DNA of 63,205 nt, the filler included, from Reclinomonas americana ATCC 50394 (Eukaryota): assembly GCA_048213135.1 (NCBI GenBank). It is 5 parts of 4 records of this genome, joined end to end, with 100 filler letters (N's around TTAATTAATTAA, not from the genome) between each part and the next. Parts side by side here need not be neighbours in the genome. Positions count along the whole stretch, not along the records: positions 1 to 13,505 come from PS015466.1; positions 13,606 to 30,894 come from PS015466.1; positions 30,995 to 57,107 come from PS015467.1; positions 57,208 to 61,751 come from PS015470.1; 1 more part is not named here. One strand, written 5' to 3'. A program made the translations under genes and the position numbers. Position 1 is the first letter of the stretch. Each line of letters begins with the position of its first letter. The notes under the pieces are model-generated. The model worked only from the letters and a program-made list of their open reading frames with translations. It ran no database searches and was not told where the DNA came from. Positions 5,323-58,709 of this stretch are shown here, piece after piece.

Positions 5323-6534
5323 TCACCGAGCGCCCATTCTGTGGAACACGAGCTGGTGATCGGTCTCTTGCGGACCGGGCTTTAGCGACACCATGACGGG
5401 CCGGTTGCGCAGCGACGAGCGCAGCATGACCAGATCGCTGTTGGCGATCTGCGTGCCGTCTCCCTCATGCTCCACTGCCGCAGCGTCGCTGTCGGCTGCA
5501 TTCTCTGCATTATTCGTCGACGTCGTCGTCGTTGTTGTCGATGCAGTCGTCTTTTCCGGTTCAATGCTGGTGTAGTAGCCGGCAATGCTCACCAGCTCCG
5601 GATTGAAGGCAGCCGCGTAGATGCGGCAGTTCAGATTGCCGCGCAGACTACGACACACACACGCACACGCACACACGCACACACACAGGTATGAGGGAAC
5701 TGACACGGAGTGGCAACGGCAGCGATTCGACGTACCCTGCGTGCGCCTGGCCCTCCAGCACGCCGTACACGTGAATGTCGCCGTCGGCCCGCACTTCGCC
5801 GTACGCATGCACGTGGCCAATGACCACCAGGCTGCGGTCCTTGGCGTACACCTCCTGCCCGCCACGCACCGGCTGCGACCACACCAGCGCCTCCAACGGT
5901 GCAGCTTGCACCTGTGCCGGTGGTGGAGGCGGAGGCTGAGGCGTGGCGGGCTGAGAGGACAGCGCTGCAGCTGGCTGATCGCTGCCACTGACAACAACCA
6001 CCGACTGACTGTTTTCGCGCACGAGTGGCAACCGTGCGGCCTGCGCAATCGCCTTGCTGTAGCGCGATGCCTGCGTGACTCCCACCGGCAGCATCTCGCA
6101 CTCCCCACGCAGTGTGTCGGCAATGTGGCGCACAAAGTCGGCTACCTCCTCGCTACTGCTGCTCATCTCTGCAGTGCCGGCCGGTGTCGTGGCATCTGCA
6201 TCGCTCGGTGGTGTGGCCGGTGGTCGATAGTCTCTGTTGACATGCATGTGAGTCAGAGAGGGAGAGAGGACAGGGGAGAAGGGTGTGTGTGTGCACGCAA
6301 CAGGACGACGGGGGAGCCTCGATAGAAGGCAGCAGTGGCACGAATCTGCGTGTGCGAGTGAGAAGTGATGAGCATGCATCATGCAGTCAGCCTGTGAGAG
6401 ACCTTGTCGAGTGCACTGAGGCCATCCTCCCGCGAACTGATGCGCAGTGTGGGCACGAGGAAGGACTTGTTGACGAGCGCCAGCTTGTGATTGCTGCTGA
6501 AGAGAGCGCGACTGACGAGTGCTCTGAGAATCAT
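5323..6534 (-). CDS. minC: Septum site-determining protein MinC homologue with predicted mitochondrial presequence
   Basis: Exons 6534-6403, 6345-6302, 6233-5736, 5647-5323. Product MILRALVSRALFSS...IRATAAFYRGSPVVLD...PVRGGQEVYAKDRSLVVIGHVHAYGEVRADGDIHVYGVLEGQAHAGLRGNLNCRIYAAAFNPELVSIAGYY, matching the MinC C-terminal beta-helix (VRSGQ, ADGxIHVYG, ELVSIAG). Confidence 0.9.
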
Positions 6535-6571
6535 GTTGAGTCGCGAACTGGGACGGAGGACAAGACTTCTT

Positions 6572-8966
6572 TCACTCTTCGTCGCTGTCACCGCGCAAGC
6601 GATTGCTGCTGTGTGCTGCGGCCCATGCACGAATGCGCGAGGAGAACCACTTGGCCGAGTCCTTTTGGTAGCGCTTGAGGCCGTCCTTGTAGTCGACGTA
6701 GTGCAGACCGAAGCGCTTGGTGAACCCGTCGGCCCACTCCAGGTTGTCCATGAAGGACCACGCAAAGTAGCCACTGTGGCGTGCATGCATGTGTAAATGC
6801 GAGTGAGTAGTGCATGCCAGGTGCAGCGCGGCGAGCGAGTCAACACGCACCGCACGTCGACGCCGTCTTGCAGCGCCAGCTCGACGTTGGCAATGTACTG
6901 CTGGAGGTAGTTGACACGGAAGGCGTCGTGCAGTGCCTGCTGCAACGGCAGCAAGCCCTCGTTCGGCACGTCGACGCCGTTCTCCGTCACGTAGATGGGT
7001 GTGTGCTGGTACCGCTGGTACAGCCAGGAGAGGGCGTGACGAATGCCTGTCGGCACCACGTACAGCCAGTTGCTGTCGGCCTCGGGACCGATCGGCTGTC
7101 CGTTGATACCAATGGGAGTGACACGCGCCTGAGAGTCGGCGTGGTACGACGAGTTGCGAGGCGCATTCGGGTCGTTCTGCACATACTTGGACGTCTGGGC
7201 GCGCAGGGGTCAGCCAACAACCAAAGGTGGAGGCTAGCGCTCACACGTGTACAACGAAACGTAGTGATTGAAGCCGAGGAAATCGTGCGAGCCGGTCAGC
7301 AGCTGCGACTGCTCCTTGGTGAAAGTGGGCAGGCGGTCGCCGACGAGGCGGCGCATCGATGCCGGATAATCACCAAACCAAATCGGGTCGGCTGTCGACA
7401 ACCATGCATGGGATGAGAACTCGAGGCGCAACACGACTGCACGGGTGAGAAATGTACTAACCGAACCACCCCAGTTGGAACTGCGGGGGAGGAAACCAGA
7501 ATGGTGAGTGAGAACATATTTTTCTTCTCGGAACACGGAGAGAATGCGTATACCTCCATCGATCGCTGCGCCGCCTGTGCATCATCTTGCGAGGTGACGT
7601 CGTACGGTTCGTTCCAGTCCATGCTGTGTGCGTGCGTGTGTGCGTAAATGGTGAGCATGTCACGTGCTGTCGAGTTGCGTAGTGCATGCAAACGTACTTG
7701 AGTGTGATGCCAATCTGGCCGCGCTGAGTCGCCTGGTACTTGGTGCGGTAGATTTGCACGGCGCGCGCGTGCGCATTGAGAAGCGTGTGTGCGCAGATGT
7801 AGGGCTCGGTGGCCGAGTTGCCGGCCGCACAGCGTGAGCGATCCGAGCAGCGGCCCGGTGCGTTGACACCGTCATCGTACCCAATCACACACACACTCAG
7901 TGGCTGCGAGAGTGCGCATGAGAAGAGTGTTGAGAAAACCGCAGACTTCACGATTCGTATACCTCGTTGAAGGTCAGCCAGAACTTGACACGGTCGCCGA
8001 ATGCCGCAAAGCACGTGTCCGCATCTGCTCGGAGAATGAGCACAAGCGCGCGACAAAACATGAGCAAGTGCACGACGCACACAACGCAAACGCCTGCTCC
8101 ATCATGGTGCTATTCAACCAGCTCAGCTTGTTCTGCAATGCAGCAAAGTGAGCAGTCTCGTCCGGCACTCGCTCAACACAGGTGCAGCTCACCTCCAACA
8201 CCATCGGGTGGTCCCAATGATACAGCGTGATCAGCGGCTCAATGCCAGCCGCGATCAGTCTGCACCAACCACCATCGCACATGAGCTCAACGTGCAGTGG
8301 TTGCTTCCATGCCACACGCGCAACGCAACGAATCAATGAGCCGATTGTAAAAGGCGACTCCCGGCTGATTCACCGGCAGCGATCCAGTCGGCAAGATGCG
8401 AGACCTTTTTCACCAGCATCCACATGAGGAGAGACAGCAGAGACAACAGTCACTGGTCAAACACACACACACCAAGCAATGCTCAAGCGATAGTGCTGCA
8501 CTCCCATGTTCCGCATCAATGCAATGTCCTCTGCCCCCGATGACCATGATGATGAGCAGCATGTGTGAGAGAGACTAGTATTCCACTTACTCTCTCACTC
8601 CCCACCTGCAAAGCGATGATAGTGATCGTCGGCGACATCTCCATTGTCGTTGTTCTTGATCTTGCCCGGAATGTGCGAGAACACATCCCAGTTTGAGAGG
8701 CCCTGTTTGCTATCAGTCACTGCAGTGTGTGCGAGTTATGCATGCACATACACACCTTGCCATCGTCGCGATAGGCACCCTCCACTTGGAATGCACTGCA
8801 GAGGGAGTGTCAGAGAGTGTGTGCGCGAGTTCTCTCGCGTGTGTGTGTGTTTGTCATTCACGCACGCTGTGGCGGTGCCCCACTTAAAGTCCGCGGGGAA
8901 CTCTGCATAGGCCACTGCAGACAGGAGCAGCACGAGGAGCGCAAGCACGCTCGCAACTCGTCTCAT
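6572..8966 (-). CDS. Glycoside hydrolase family 1 beta-glucosidase with signal peptide (multi-exon)
   Basis: Signal peptide, [29 protein letters not shown] acid/base, YVTENG nucleophile, [28 protein letters not shown]. Confidence 0.95.
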
Positions 8967-9029
8967 TTCTCTCTCTCTGCCCAATTTTCACCCGTTTTCT
9001 CTCTTTACGCGAGAGAGAGAGAGACAGCG

Positions 9030-57107: not shown

Positions 57108-57151
57108 NNNNNNNNNNNNNNNNNNNNNNNNNNNNNNNNNNNNNNNNNNNN

Positions 57152-57163
57152 TTAATTAATTAA
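57152..57163. other. Artificial scaffold linker TTAATTAATTAA
   Basis: Same 12-mer within Ns. Confidence 0.9.
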
Positions 57164-57261
57164 NNNNNNNNNNNNNNNNNNNNNNNNNNNNNNNNNNNNN
57201 NNNNNNNCCCCATGCCCGTCACGTGGCGTGTGCTCACCTCCCCCTCTTTTCCCGTGTGCAG

Positions 57262-58709
57262 TGCTGCAAAAGCTGGGCGGCACGGTCGACGACACGGAGC
57301 TGGTGAATGGCATTGTGTTCAAGCAAAAGGCCAGCCACTCGGCCGGTGGACCCAACCGCATTGAGAACGCCAAGATCGGTCTGATTCAGTTCTGCCTCTC
57401 GGCACCCAAGACCGACGTTGCGTGCTGTTTTGGCAGCAGGGAAGAGACGGAGAGAGTTCTCCAGTGGCTTACATGGATGGTGCTTCGCACAGATGGACAA
57501 CTCGGTGATTGTCAGCGATTACCACCAGATGGACCAGATCATGGCCGACGAGCGCAAGTACCTGCTGCGCCTGGTGCGCCACATCAAGCAGACGGGTGTG
57601 TTTGGCGGAGCTCTCATAATGCTGTCGGCATGGGGGACTATTCTTTTTCCTCATTCACGCACAAACACACACACGCAGGCTGCAATGTGCTGCTGATCCA
57701 GAAGAGCATTCTGCGCGATGCCGTGTCACCGCAGTCGCTGGCCTACCTGGCCAAGGCCGGCATCATGGTGATTCGTGATGTGGATCGTACCGAAATTGAG
57801 TTTATTGCCGAGACTCTCGGCTGCATGCCGGCCGCCAACCTGGCGGGCTTCACCGCCGAGAAGCTCGGTCGCGCCAACCTGGTCGAGGAGGTGCCGACGG
57901 GCGAGGGCAAGATTGTGAAGATCACCGGCACACCCGACGCCAGGACCACCTCCATTCTGGTGCGTGGCTCCAACAAGCTGATTCTGGAGGAGGCCGAGCG
58001 CTCGCTGCACGACGCCCTCTGCGTCGTGCGCAGCCTGGTCAAGCGGAGGTACGTTGCTGTGTTGGGCAGGGAGGGAGAAGGGGTGGGGACAATCTCTTCT
58101 TCTCTTTGTGGCTGTTGACGATGAGATTCTTGCTGACACCTCTTCTGAATAACCGTGAGTGATAATGCAAGTGCTGAAACGCGCCTAAGAGAGAGAAAGA
58201 GAAAGAGCGATTGACCCCACCCTTTTCCCCTAGTCTCTTGTCGTGTGCGATAGTCGTGCTGAGTCTTCTTCGCGATTGCGCAGGTTCCTGATCACTGGCG
58301 GCGGTGCGCCGGAGATGGAGCTGTCGGTGCAGCTGCAAAAGTGGGCCAAGACCCTCCCTGGCATGGACTCGTACTGTGTGCGCGCCTACGCCGAGGTTTG
58401 TGTTTGCGGGAGATTTCATGCAGTGGTTGGTTGCCTACTCACCTCTGTTGCGCACAGGCCTTCGAGGTCATCCCGGTGACACTGGCTGAGAACGCCGGCT
58501 TGCACCCGATTTCGATCCTCACCGAGCTTCGCGCAAGGCACGTGGAGGGCGACAAGGCCGCCGGCATCAACGTGAAGCGTGGCCGTGTGACGAGCATGGT
58601 CGACGAGCACGTGCTGCAGCCGCTGTTGACGAACATCTCGGCCGTCAACCTGGCCACCGAAACCGTGCGCATGATCCTCAAGATCGACGACATTATTGTG
58701 GTGCCTTAA
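57262..58709 (+). CDS. CCT4: T-complex protein 1 subunit delta, 5'-truncated
   Basis: [77 protein letters not shown]. Confidence 0.95.

Follow-up and report, generated by a model that had tools for sequence, protein, structure and literature searches.

Shifted and bulged (+2/+3) registers of pairing between the U1 small nuclear RNA (snRNA) and atypical human 5' splice sites were reportedly described by Roca and Krainer in 2009 and by Roca et al. in 2012. Displaced U1 registers have been proven in human cells (Tan et al. 2016, PMC4856993), where, in the accessible part of that paper, the validated noncanonical registers together account for 1.5% of 5' splice sites, 68 sites being predicted to use the bulge +2/+3 register. 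This report concerns 63,205 nucleotides of nuclear DNA from Reclinomonas americana ATCC 50394 (GenBank assembly GCA_048213135.1; five parts joined by N filler, hereafter the window), in which an earlier reading of the sequence, here called the original prediction, had noticed an abundant second class of 5' splice site (donor), GTTGCG(T), and had likened it, rightly as to the existence and rarity of the precedent, to these human sites. As far as the accessible text describes them, the two share a GU followed by an extra base, consensus G and U at +6 and +7, poor canonical pairing (in the window, with a human-type U1 end) and, on the shifted reading, a cut that lies off its usual position on the U1 helix. 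They differ in that a single, near-invariant motif makes up 21-26% of donors in the window and is tied to the last exon base (position -1), while the register in the window is one that we infer.

Other eukaryotes offer closer parallels in one respect or another. Entamoeba combines GUUUGU donors with a U1 reading ACAAAC, and Mastigamoeba GUACGU with ACGUAC (bioRxiv 10.1101/2022.06.08.495308, in the sections available). The window resembles them in its non-GUAAGU consensus, a pyrimidine at +4, a preference reaching out to +7U and the possibility of a changed U1, but those lineages appear there with one consensus each, whereas the window holds two coexisting classes displaced by one base. Its normal class, GTGCGT-like with C at +4, recalls the GYGCGY donors of Mamiellales and the +4C of Thecamonas; unlike the window, however, neither is credited with a GTTGCGT class in the available sections of the same preprint. 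The left- and right-handed 5' splice sites of animals and plants (PMC11842720, accessible text) likewise form two abundant classes with their consensus on the exon side (-1G) or on the intron side, but both keep +5G there, whereas the intron-side class here has an inserted T and G at +6. A literature search by motif, register and U1, not by organism, and with subscription journals and supplements outside its coverage, found no earlier account of a GTTGCGT donor class.

All junctions discussed here are predictions from genomic DNA, some of them with protein homology. They were called with a purpose-written gene finder based on Viterbi dynamic programming (DP), whose blind form requires only GT at the donor (GC with a penalty) and scores codon usage, intron length, a bonus for a branch-like CTSAY word discovered by enrichment, and a bonus for a YAG end. 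Codon usage was trained on frames with Pfam hits and then on the coding calls of the DP itself. The third blind pass called 163 introns, 133 of them in loci judged to be supported by Pfam hits or gene score; a filter for 50-140 nt, YAG and CTSAY keeps 95 of these. In all, 68 of the 163 are dropped, four of which start with GTTGCG. The first and second blind passes split genes or over-extended on the wrong strand and served only as extra blind support. A donor-informed DP, its donor model learned from the blind set, gave together with hand corrections a curated set of 146 introns, which is circular for donor statistics because of that training and is used here for anatomy only.

Among the 95 blind donors the commonest hexamer is GTTGCG, with 20 occurrences (21%), although it accounts for only 84 of the 7703 GT sites in the window (1.1%; binomial p = 4e-20). 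GTGCGT (12), GTGTGT (7) and GTGAGT, GTTTGT and GTGAGC (4 each) follow. The curated 146 include 38 GTTGCG (26%), 5 GTTTCG, 1 GTTACG, 1 GTTCCG and 91 donors with G at +5 (+5G donors), and the 38 continue as GTTGCGT in 31 introns, GTTGCGA in 4, GTTGCGC in 2 and GTTGCGG in 1. The word itself is in modest excess, its 84 copies standing against a mean of 62 in shuffled sequence (sd 7.2, maximum 77; none of 100 shuffles reached 84). By these counts, roughly 21-26% of the introns predicted in the window belong to the GTTGCG(T) class, which makes it the second major kind of donor there, and the original prediction of a major class is upheld. As for the fate of the 84 copies, 38 are donors, 1 is a donor cut by a gap, 3 are sense exonic, 13 sense intronic, 17 antisense to genes and 12 outside loci. 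Exonic GTTGCG runs 4 sense to 14 antisense, but GTTGCC (8 to 24) and GTTGCT (5 to 12) are similarly skewed, so avoidance of the motif by exons cannot be read from the strand skew.

What separates the two classes is the base before the cut. In the blind set, G stands at -1 in 1 of 22 GTTGNG donors (A 9, C 7, T 5) against 38 of 56 +5G donors (Fisher p = 3.5e-7), in agreement with the tie to a non-G exon end that had been proposed. Viewed from the exon, the 43 donors after G divide into 38 +5G, 1 GTTNCG and 4 others, while the 52 after non-G divide into 21 GTTNCG, 18 +5G (mostly full GTGCGT or GTGAGT) and 13 others, probably miscalls for the most part. Donors after G are loose (GTGTGT 7, GTGCGT 6, GTTTGT 3, GTGAGC 3, others) and donors after non-G strict. 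The curated set, circular for this count, has G at -1 in 1 of 45 GTTGCG, GTTTCG, GTTACG and GTTCCG donors against 73 of 91 +5G donors. Both G exceptions named beforehand are present: the donor at 19703 reads ccg/GTTGCGTC and that at 41804 reads gtg/GTTGCGTA (a slash marks the cut). GTTGCG(T) is used nearly only after exons ending in A, C or T.

Protein evidence fixes 7 of the 38 curated GTTGCG junctions to the residue: -8329 (a minus sign marks the minus strand), 57417 and 49147 by Pfam continuity, 24062, 24314 and 24870 by eight SVOP-like homologues, and 32344 by nine homologues of alanyl-tRNA synthetase (AlaRS). Two more, 48833 and 39892, are fixed approximately. For Pfam continuity, profile coordinates were compared between single translated predicted exons. 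At -8329 the GH1 profile fills the upstream exon to its last residue (82-105) and resumes, after a split codon, from residue 2 of the next (108-128); at 57417 Cpn60_TCP1 covers 169-215 (residues 3-50 of 51) and then 218-249 from residue 2; at 49147 Prenyltrans runs over 103-179, a split codon and 181-303. Two variant donors are equally continuous, 29564 (GTTACG; tRNA-synt_2c 15-40, then 41-91) and -7260 (GTTTCG; GH1 251-295, then 299-400 from residue 4). In the first model of the SVOP-like gene, 14 residues were missing at donor 24062 and 3 at donor 24314; adding a 42-nt exon (24141-24182) and a 9-nt micro-exon (24372-24380) makes it gapless against the eight homologues across all three donors. 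In AlaRS, donor 32344 is gapless against nine homologues, whereas the blind choice at 32305 leaves a 13-residue gap. At 48833 the upstream exon stops after a complete codon (phase 0, 48832), and a 64-nt intron follows from the sole in-frame AG, at 48896. The nine GTTGCG junctions of a HEAT-repeat gene are drawn from frame and codon evidence, the gene having no homologue among longer proteins and its sole relative, among 1.84 billion representatives, being a 113-residue fragment (64% identity).

In every other respect the class looks ordinary. All 38 curated GTTGCG introns are GT..AG with the reading frame kept open; their median length is 70.5 nt against 67 nt for +5G introns, a CTSAY word falls in the final 49 nt of 32 of 38 against 70 of 91, and a CAG or TAG end occurs in 37 of 38 against 89 of 91. 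Intron phase is the same in both classes (p = 0.76), and both are handled as the same spliceosome (U2) type. U12-type donors have the consensus /RTATCCTT with a matching branch box; donors that read GTTGCGT and the same branch-like CTSAY as in other introns do not fit a U12 assignment. Within the predicted gene models, these data establish that short GT-AG introns of the ordinary U2 type do begin at GTTGCG(T).

Two explanations would deny the class that standing, and both are highly improbable. If the introns were copies of an introner, a mobile intron-generating element bringing its own 5' end, the uniform 7-nt start (GTTGCGT in 31 of 38) and the many copies within few genes would be accounted for. 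A common internal sequence is absent, however: in an all-against-all blastn-short comparison of 92 filtered introns with splice-site cores removed, the 20 GTTGCG introns show no mutual similarity except for 42612 and 43172 (88% over 52 nt), and this pair belongs to a duplicated gene segment. An inverted copy of the motif (CGCAAC), as terminal inverted repeats would provide, occurs in only 1 of 38, and lengths and 3' ends are as in other introns. The introner origin that had been raised beforehand is thus not borne out, and the lack of shared internal sequence marks these as ordinary GT-AG introns rather than an introner family. Nor does it seem likely that the class is an artefact of the gene models, with wrong donors chosen by eye or by DP. 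The junctions are indeed predicted from DNA, the curated donor model is circular, and some blind calls are wrong (32305, 48690 and 49132 among them), GTTGCG donors at 32344, 48833 and 49147 having been missed or misplaced. Against this, the blind DP, knowing only GT and GC, still ranks GTTGCG first, and the seven junctions fixed by independent protein evidence override the blind choice, in favour of GTTGCG, at 32344 and 49147.

The 30 GTTGCG sites listed in the original prediction (27 plus, 3 minus) all carry the motif on the strand given. Blind runs recover 18 of them (17 in pass 3, and 46647 in passes 1 and 2) plus six unlisted donors; the donor-informed DP adds eight (10021, 16347, 24062, 32344, 38680, 39892, 44320 and 49147), hand inspection fits 9756, 17780 and 48833, and the intron at 13459 cannot be closed, since an N gap lies 47 nt downstream. 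Eight GTTGCG donors go beyond that list: -23460, -33587, -33850, -34758, -34967, -35190, -35749 and -50136. Of the variants proposed with it, GTTTCG (12941) and GTTACG (29564) are present on the plus strand, but the GTTGAGT near 12397 is a candidate on the minus strand, positions 12391-12397 being ACTCAAC on the plus strand. GTTTCG donors are found at 12941, -7260, -33163, 43637 and -63168, and GTTACG at 29564. The sites are as follows, with position, strand, donor, gene where placed, and support.

6234..6301, minus: intron, cct/GTTGCGTG, MinC-like gene; blind DP
8260..8329, minus: intron, ttc/GTTGCGTT, GH1 gene; blind DP, Pfam Glyco_hydro_1 continuity
9756..9832, plus: intron, gaa/GTTGCGCT, DGAT2-like gene; hand inspection, joins ..HMPHG to IFPMGQ
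10021..10086, plus: intron, gcc/GTTGCGTG, DGAT2-like gene; donor-informed DP
13459..13505, plus: intron start, cgc/GTTGCGTC, after the N-terminal exon of malate dehydrogenase (MDH); N gap cuts off the acceptor
14535..14595, plus: intron, caa/GTTGCGTC, Maestro-HEAT gene; blind DP
14677..14740, plus: intron, aca/GTTGCGAA, HEAT gene; blind DP
14883..14942, plus: intron, ctc/GTTGCGTG, HEAT gene; blind DP
15089..15159, plus: intron, cat/GTTGCGTC, HEAT gene; blind DP
15694..15780, plus: intron, caa/GTTGCGTC, HEAT gene; blind DP, relative P0001 ends here
16347..16422, plus: intron, cgc/GTTGCGTC, HEAT gene; donor-informed DP
17562..17629, plus: intron, aac/GTTGCGTG, HEAT gene; blind DP
17780..17859, plus: candidate intron, gga/GTTGCGTT, HEAT gene; hand inspection, alternative in-frame donor 17762
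19703..19824, plus: intron, ccg/GTTGCGTC, G exception in a weakly supported locus; blind DP
23388..23460, minus: intron, tga/GTTGCGTC, MORN gene, ends AAG, weak; donor-informed DP only
24062..24140, plus: intron, agt/GTTGCGTT, SVOP-like MFS gene; gapless with 8 homologues given exon 24141-24182
24314..24371, plus: intron, caa/GTTGCGTT, SVOP-like MFS gene, then micro-exon 24372-24380; gapless with 8 homologues
24870..24928, plus: intron, cca/GTTGCGTG, MFS gene; blind DP, gapless with 8 homologues
32344..32415, plus: intron, gct/GTTGCGTC, AlaRS; gapless against 9 homologues
33514..33587, minus: intron, gcc/GTTGCGTC; blind DP
33772..33850, minus: intron, cga/GTTGCGTG; blind DP
34688..34758, minus: intron, tct/GTTGCGTC; donor-informed DP
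34894..34967, minus: intron, aca/GTTGCGAT; blind DP
35123..35190, minus: intron, gca/GTTGCGCA; donor-informed DP
35676..35749, minus: intron, gca/GTTGCGAT; blind DP
36758..36870, minus: intron, cat/GTTGCGTA; blind DP
38680..38739, plus: intron, tac/GTTGCGTG, GH9 gene; donor-informed DP
39892..39962, plus: intron, gtt/GTTGCGTT, GH9 gene, alternative in-frame donor 39889; Pfam GH9 ..416, 422-444, approximate, donor-informed DP
40415..40482, plus: intron, ttt/GTTGCGTT; blind DP
41804..41874, plus: intron, gtg/GTTGCGTA, sole G exception in supported loci; blind DP
42612..42676, plus: intron, cac/GTTGCGTC, duplicate of 43172; blind DP
43172..43236, plus: intron, cac/GTTGCGTC, duplicate of 42612; blind DP
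44320..44380, plus: intron, gca/GTTGCGTG; donor-informed DP
44470..44532, plus: intron, att/GTTGCGTG; blind DP
44674..44741, plus: intron, aat/GTTGCGTG; blind DP
46647..46721, plus: intron, cat/GTTGCGTG, DUF4485 gene; blind DP passes 1 and 2
48833..48896, plus: intron, gat/GTTGCGGC, prenyltransferase beta; phase and sole in-frame AG, Pfam 16-99 ends near nt 48835
49147..49213, plus: intron, aga/GTTGCGAT, prenyltransferase beta; Pfam Prenyltrans continuity, donor-informed DP
50066..50136, minus: intron, ctt/GTTGCGTG, EF-hand gene; blind DP
57417..57492, plus: intron, gac/GTTGCGTG, CCT chaperonin subunit; blind DP, Pfam Cpn60_TCP1 continuity
7195..7260, minus: variant intron, tac/GTTTCGTT, GH1; blind DP, Pfam GH1 continuity
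29564..29642, plus: variant intron, caa/GTTACGGG, AlaRS; blind DP, Pfam tRNA-synt_2c continuity
12941..13024, plus: variant intron, gca/GTTTCGTT, MDH N-terminus; donor-informed DP
33097..33163, minus: variant intron, aca/GTTTCGTT; blind DP
43637..43709, plus: variant intron, cga/GTTTCGTG; donor-informed DP

Several of these sites carry features of their own. Two introns begin with a tandem pair of the donor motif (GTTGCGTTGCG), at 8319-8329 (minus) and 17780-17790 (plus), and further GTTGCG copies sit a few dozen bases into introns already starting with GTTGCG (14553, 24088). GTTGAG donors are also called at -21898 and -62380. At 42378-43440 (plus) a tandem duplication lies inside one gene, the exon-intron units at 42612 and 43172 repeating and both keeping cac/GTTGCGTC. 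The DGAT2-like gene seems to hold a 29-nt exon at 9727-9755, and the ..HMPHG at its 9756 junction may correspond to an HPHG motif. In the SVOP-like gene, the micro-exon at 24372-24380 (plus) restores D-K-Y-G-R-R, and the DP missed both small exons. The HEAT relative P0001 ends ..SIQTVKLSA, where the window has ..TIQTLK followed by the GTTGCGT intron at 15694 (plus), and read-through into that intron also gives K-L. P0001 may have an intron that likewise begins with GTTG at this position; a metagenome scan did not find the DNA of P0001.

With chances that we put a little short of even, GTTGCGT is the preferred G/GUGCGU signal of this lineage with U1 pairing one base further into the intron, a form chosen after non-G exons. 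The 5' end of U1 would pair with xGUUGCGU one base out of the usual register. Either +1G would pair with C9 or, equivalently, one of the two U residues would be looped out, so that +6G and +7U would come to lie at the usual places of +5G and +6U; the cut would then be set at the only GU by later U5/U6 steps. A non-G exon end lacks the -1G pair, and the G of GU would take that role. With one position mismatched, all others would have to fit, and the class would be far more uniform than normal donors. GTTGCGT, cut one base earlier than GGTGCGT, shares 6 of its 7 letters with it. The letter-for-letter alignment of the original prediction therefore fails at the second letter (G against T), but its placing of the conserved G at +6 rather than +5 stands, and apart from that letter the class is formally the local GTGCGT consensus moved by one base. 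T occupies +7 in 18 of 22 GTTGNG donors, like +6T in 35 of 56 normal donors, and the -1 make-up of the class resembles the normal -2 make-up (p = 0.78). GTTTCGT and GTTACGG look like GTTCGT and GTACGT with one T added, and both of the latter occur as normal donors. A human-type U1 end (AUACUUACCUG, as printed in PMC4856993) forms 7 pairs with GUUGCGU in the shifted register (-0.4 kcal/mol), 5 in the canonical (+2.7) and 8 in the bulged (+1.8); energetically the shifted register is the most favourable, yet none of the three is stable.

Several observations weigh against this reading. Non-G exons also take plain GTGCGT or GTGAGT (18 of 52), so nothing obliges them to use the second class. The -2 position of the class fits the normal -2 equally well (p = 0.79), and the exon side therefore cannot tell the registers apart. 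The shifted energies of -0.4 kcal/mol (CAAGUUGCGUG) and +1.7 (CACGUUGCGUC) compare with -8.6 for G/GUGCGU, and at values so near zero the duplex would hardly be stable by base pairing alone. A plain shift predicts a +5 as variable as the normal +4 (C 24, T 19, A 10, G 3 of 56), but C stands there in 20 of 22 (p = 1e-4), which points beyond a plain shift. Nor does a plain shift predict the avoidance of G at -1, since G there could still wobble-pair U10 in the shifted register.

The standard U1 5' end is ACUUACCU. A changed 5' end or a second U1 variant that fits the donors (G at U1 position 5, or a dedicated ..ACGCAAC..), in other words co-evolution of snRNA and splice site, is an unlikely explanation, yet G at position 5 would select just the strict +5C (20 of 22) and the C or T at the normal +4 (43 of 56) that are seen. 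It would also remove the objections from weak energy and strict +5C, the shifted duplex becoming optimal and +5C paired. Hypothetical ACGUAC and ACGCAC ends make the shifted duplex the best for GUUGCGU (-6.3 and -8.3 kcal/mol), with GUUGUGU and GUUGAGU falling to between -1.6 and -6.4, and a hypothetical ACGCAA end gives -12.6. The scored variants are all hypothetical, however, and Rfam finds no U1, U5 or U6 gene in the window (0 matches at gathering score; two chance-level matches at E up to 1, neither an snRNA). Precedent exists in Entamoeba and Mastigamoeba, but Thecamonas (+4C) and Mamiellales (GYGCGY) keep a standard U1 (bioRxiv 10.1101/2022.06.08.495308, available sections), so a +4C preference needs no changed U1. 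It is possible, though on the unlikely side, that no special register exists and that donors are strong either on the exon side or on the intron side, the strict intron motif being read by proteins (U1C, LUC7-like) or by U5/U6 and the likeness to a shift being coincidental. Compensation between exon and intron is general, as left- and right-handed sites illustrate (PMC11842720, accessible text); donors here are loose after G and strict after non-G, and pairing of the class with standard U1 is near zero whatever the register. This leaves unexplained the extra T and the G at +6, where GTGCGT or GTGAGT would serve, as well as the 6/7 identity with GGTGCGT and the parallel variants GTTTCGT and GTTACGG. 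An arrangement of two recognition modes picked by the last exon base, through a changed U1 (e.g. G at position 5) in two registers or through two U1 species, one of them complementary to GUUGCGU, is likewise doubtful. The window, with about 146 introns, displays a pattern and not a mechanism, and the shift of U1 pairing is a plausible mechanism for it.

The window is intron-rich, with a G+C content of 61% in predicted exons against 55% in introns and a median intron length of 69 nt in the curated set. It contains 7462 N in 23 runs, several of them formed by N44-TTAATTAATTAA-N44 linkers. A Pfam scan of all open frames of at least 80 residues (424 frames) placed GH1, MinC-like, DGAT2, MDH, Maestro-type HEAT, SVOP-like MFS transporter, AlaRS, GH9, prenyltransferase beta, CCT subunit and other genes. 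No annotated proteome matches the window; the best AlaRS matches are 44-48% identical (plants, Palpitomonas) and the best SVOP matches 47-52%; two metagenome scans found no near relative, one being without a match and the other reaching 61% at best. Some joined contigs are misordered or inverted. AlaRS exons (window 29390-32754) lie at 29484-29943 (plus), 30378-30893 and 30995-31762 (minus) and 31786-32754 (plus), in blocks separated by N44-TTAATTAATTAA-N44 and N20 joins, and the MDH N-terminal exons (13025-13458) come after the C-terminal part (11104-11943; window 11052-13505). A MinC C-terminal domain is found in a nuclear intron-bearing gene at 5323-6345 (minus; Pfam E = 1.6e-14) that adjoins the GH1 glycosidase gene, the two having been merged into one by the gene finder. 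As a MinC-domain gene in a eukaryotic nucleus, it would imply an organelle with a bacterial-type Min division system.

Knowledge of how the spliceosome locates the precise start of an intron, and of how far U1 pairing may slide while the cut stays in place, comes mostly from engineered reporters and a small number of rare human sites. If about one in four introns genome-wide has a +6G donor in an either/or relation with the -1 base, this would be a natural large-scale case. Such a genome would let the rules of register choice be read from thousands of sites and would allow a test of snRNA and donor co-evolution. Gene prediction for this lineage would improve too, since a donor model that insists on G at +5 would lose or misplace roughly one intron in four. 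Should two recognition modes be at work, a quarter of all introns in this organism would rely on a register or an snRNA that animals, plants and yeasts either lack or use only marginally.

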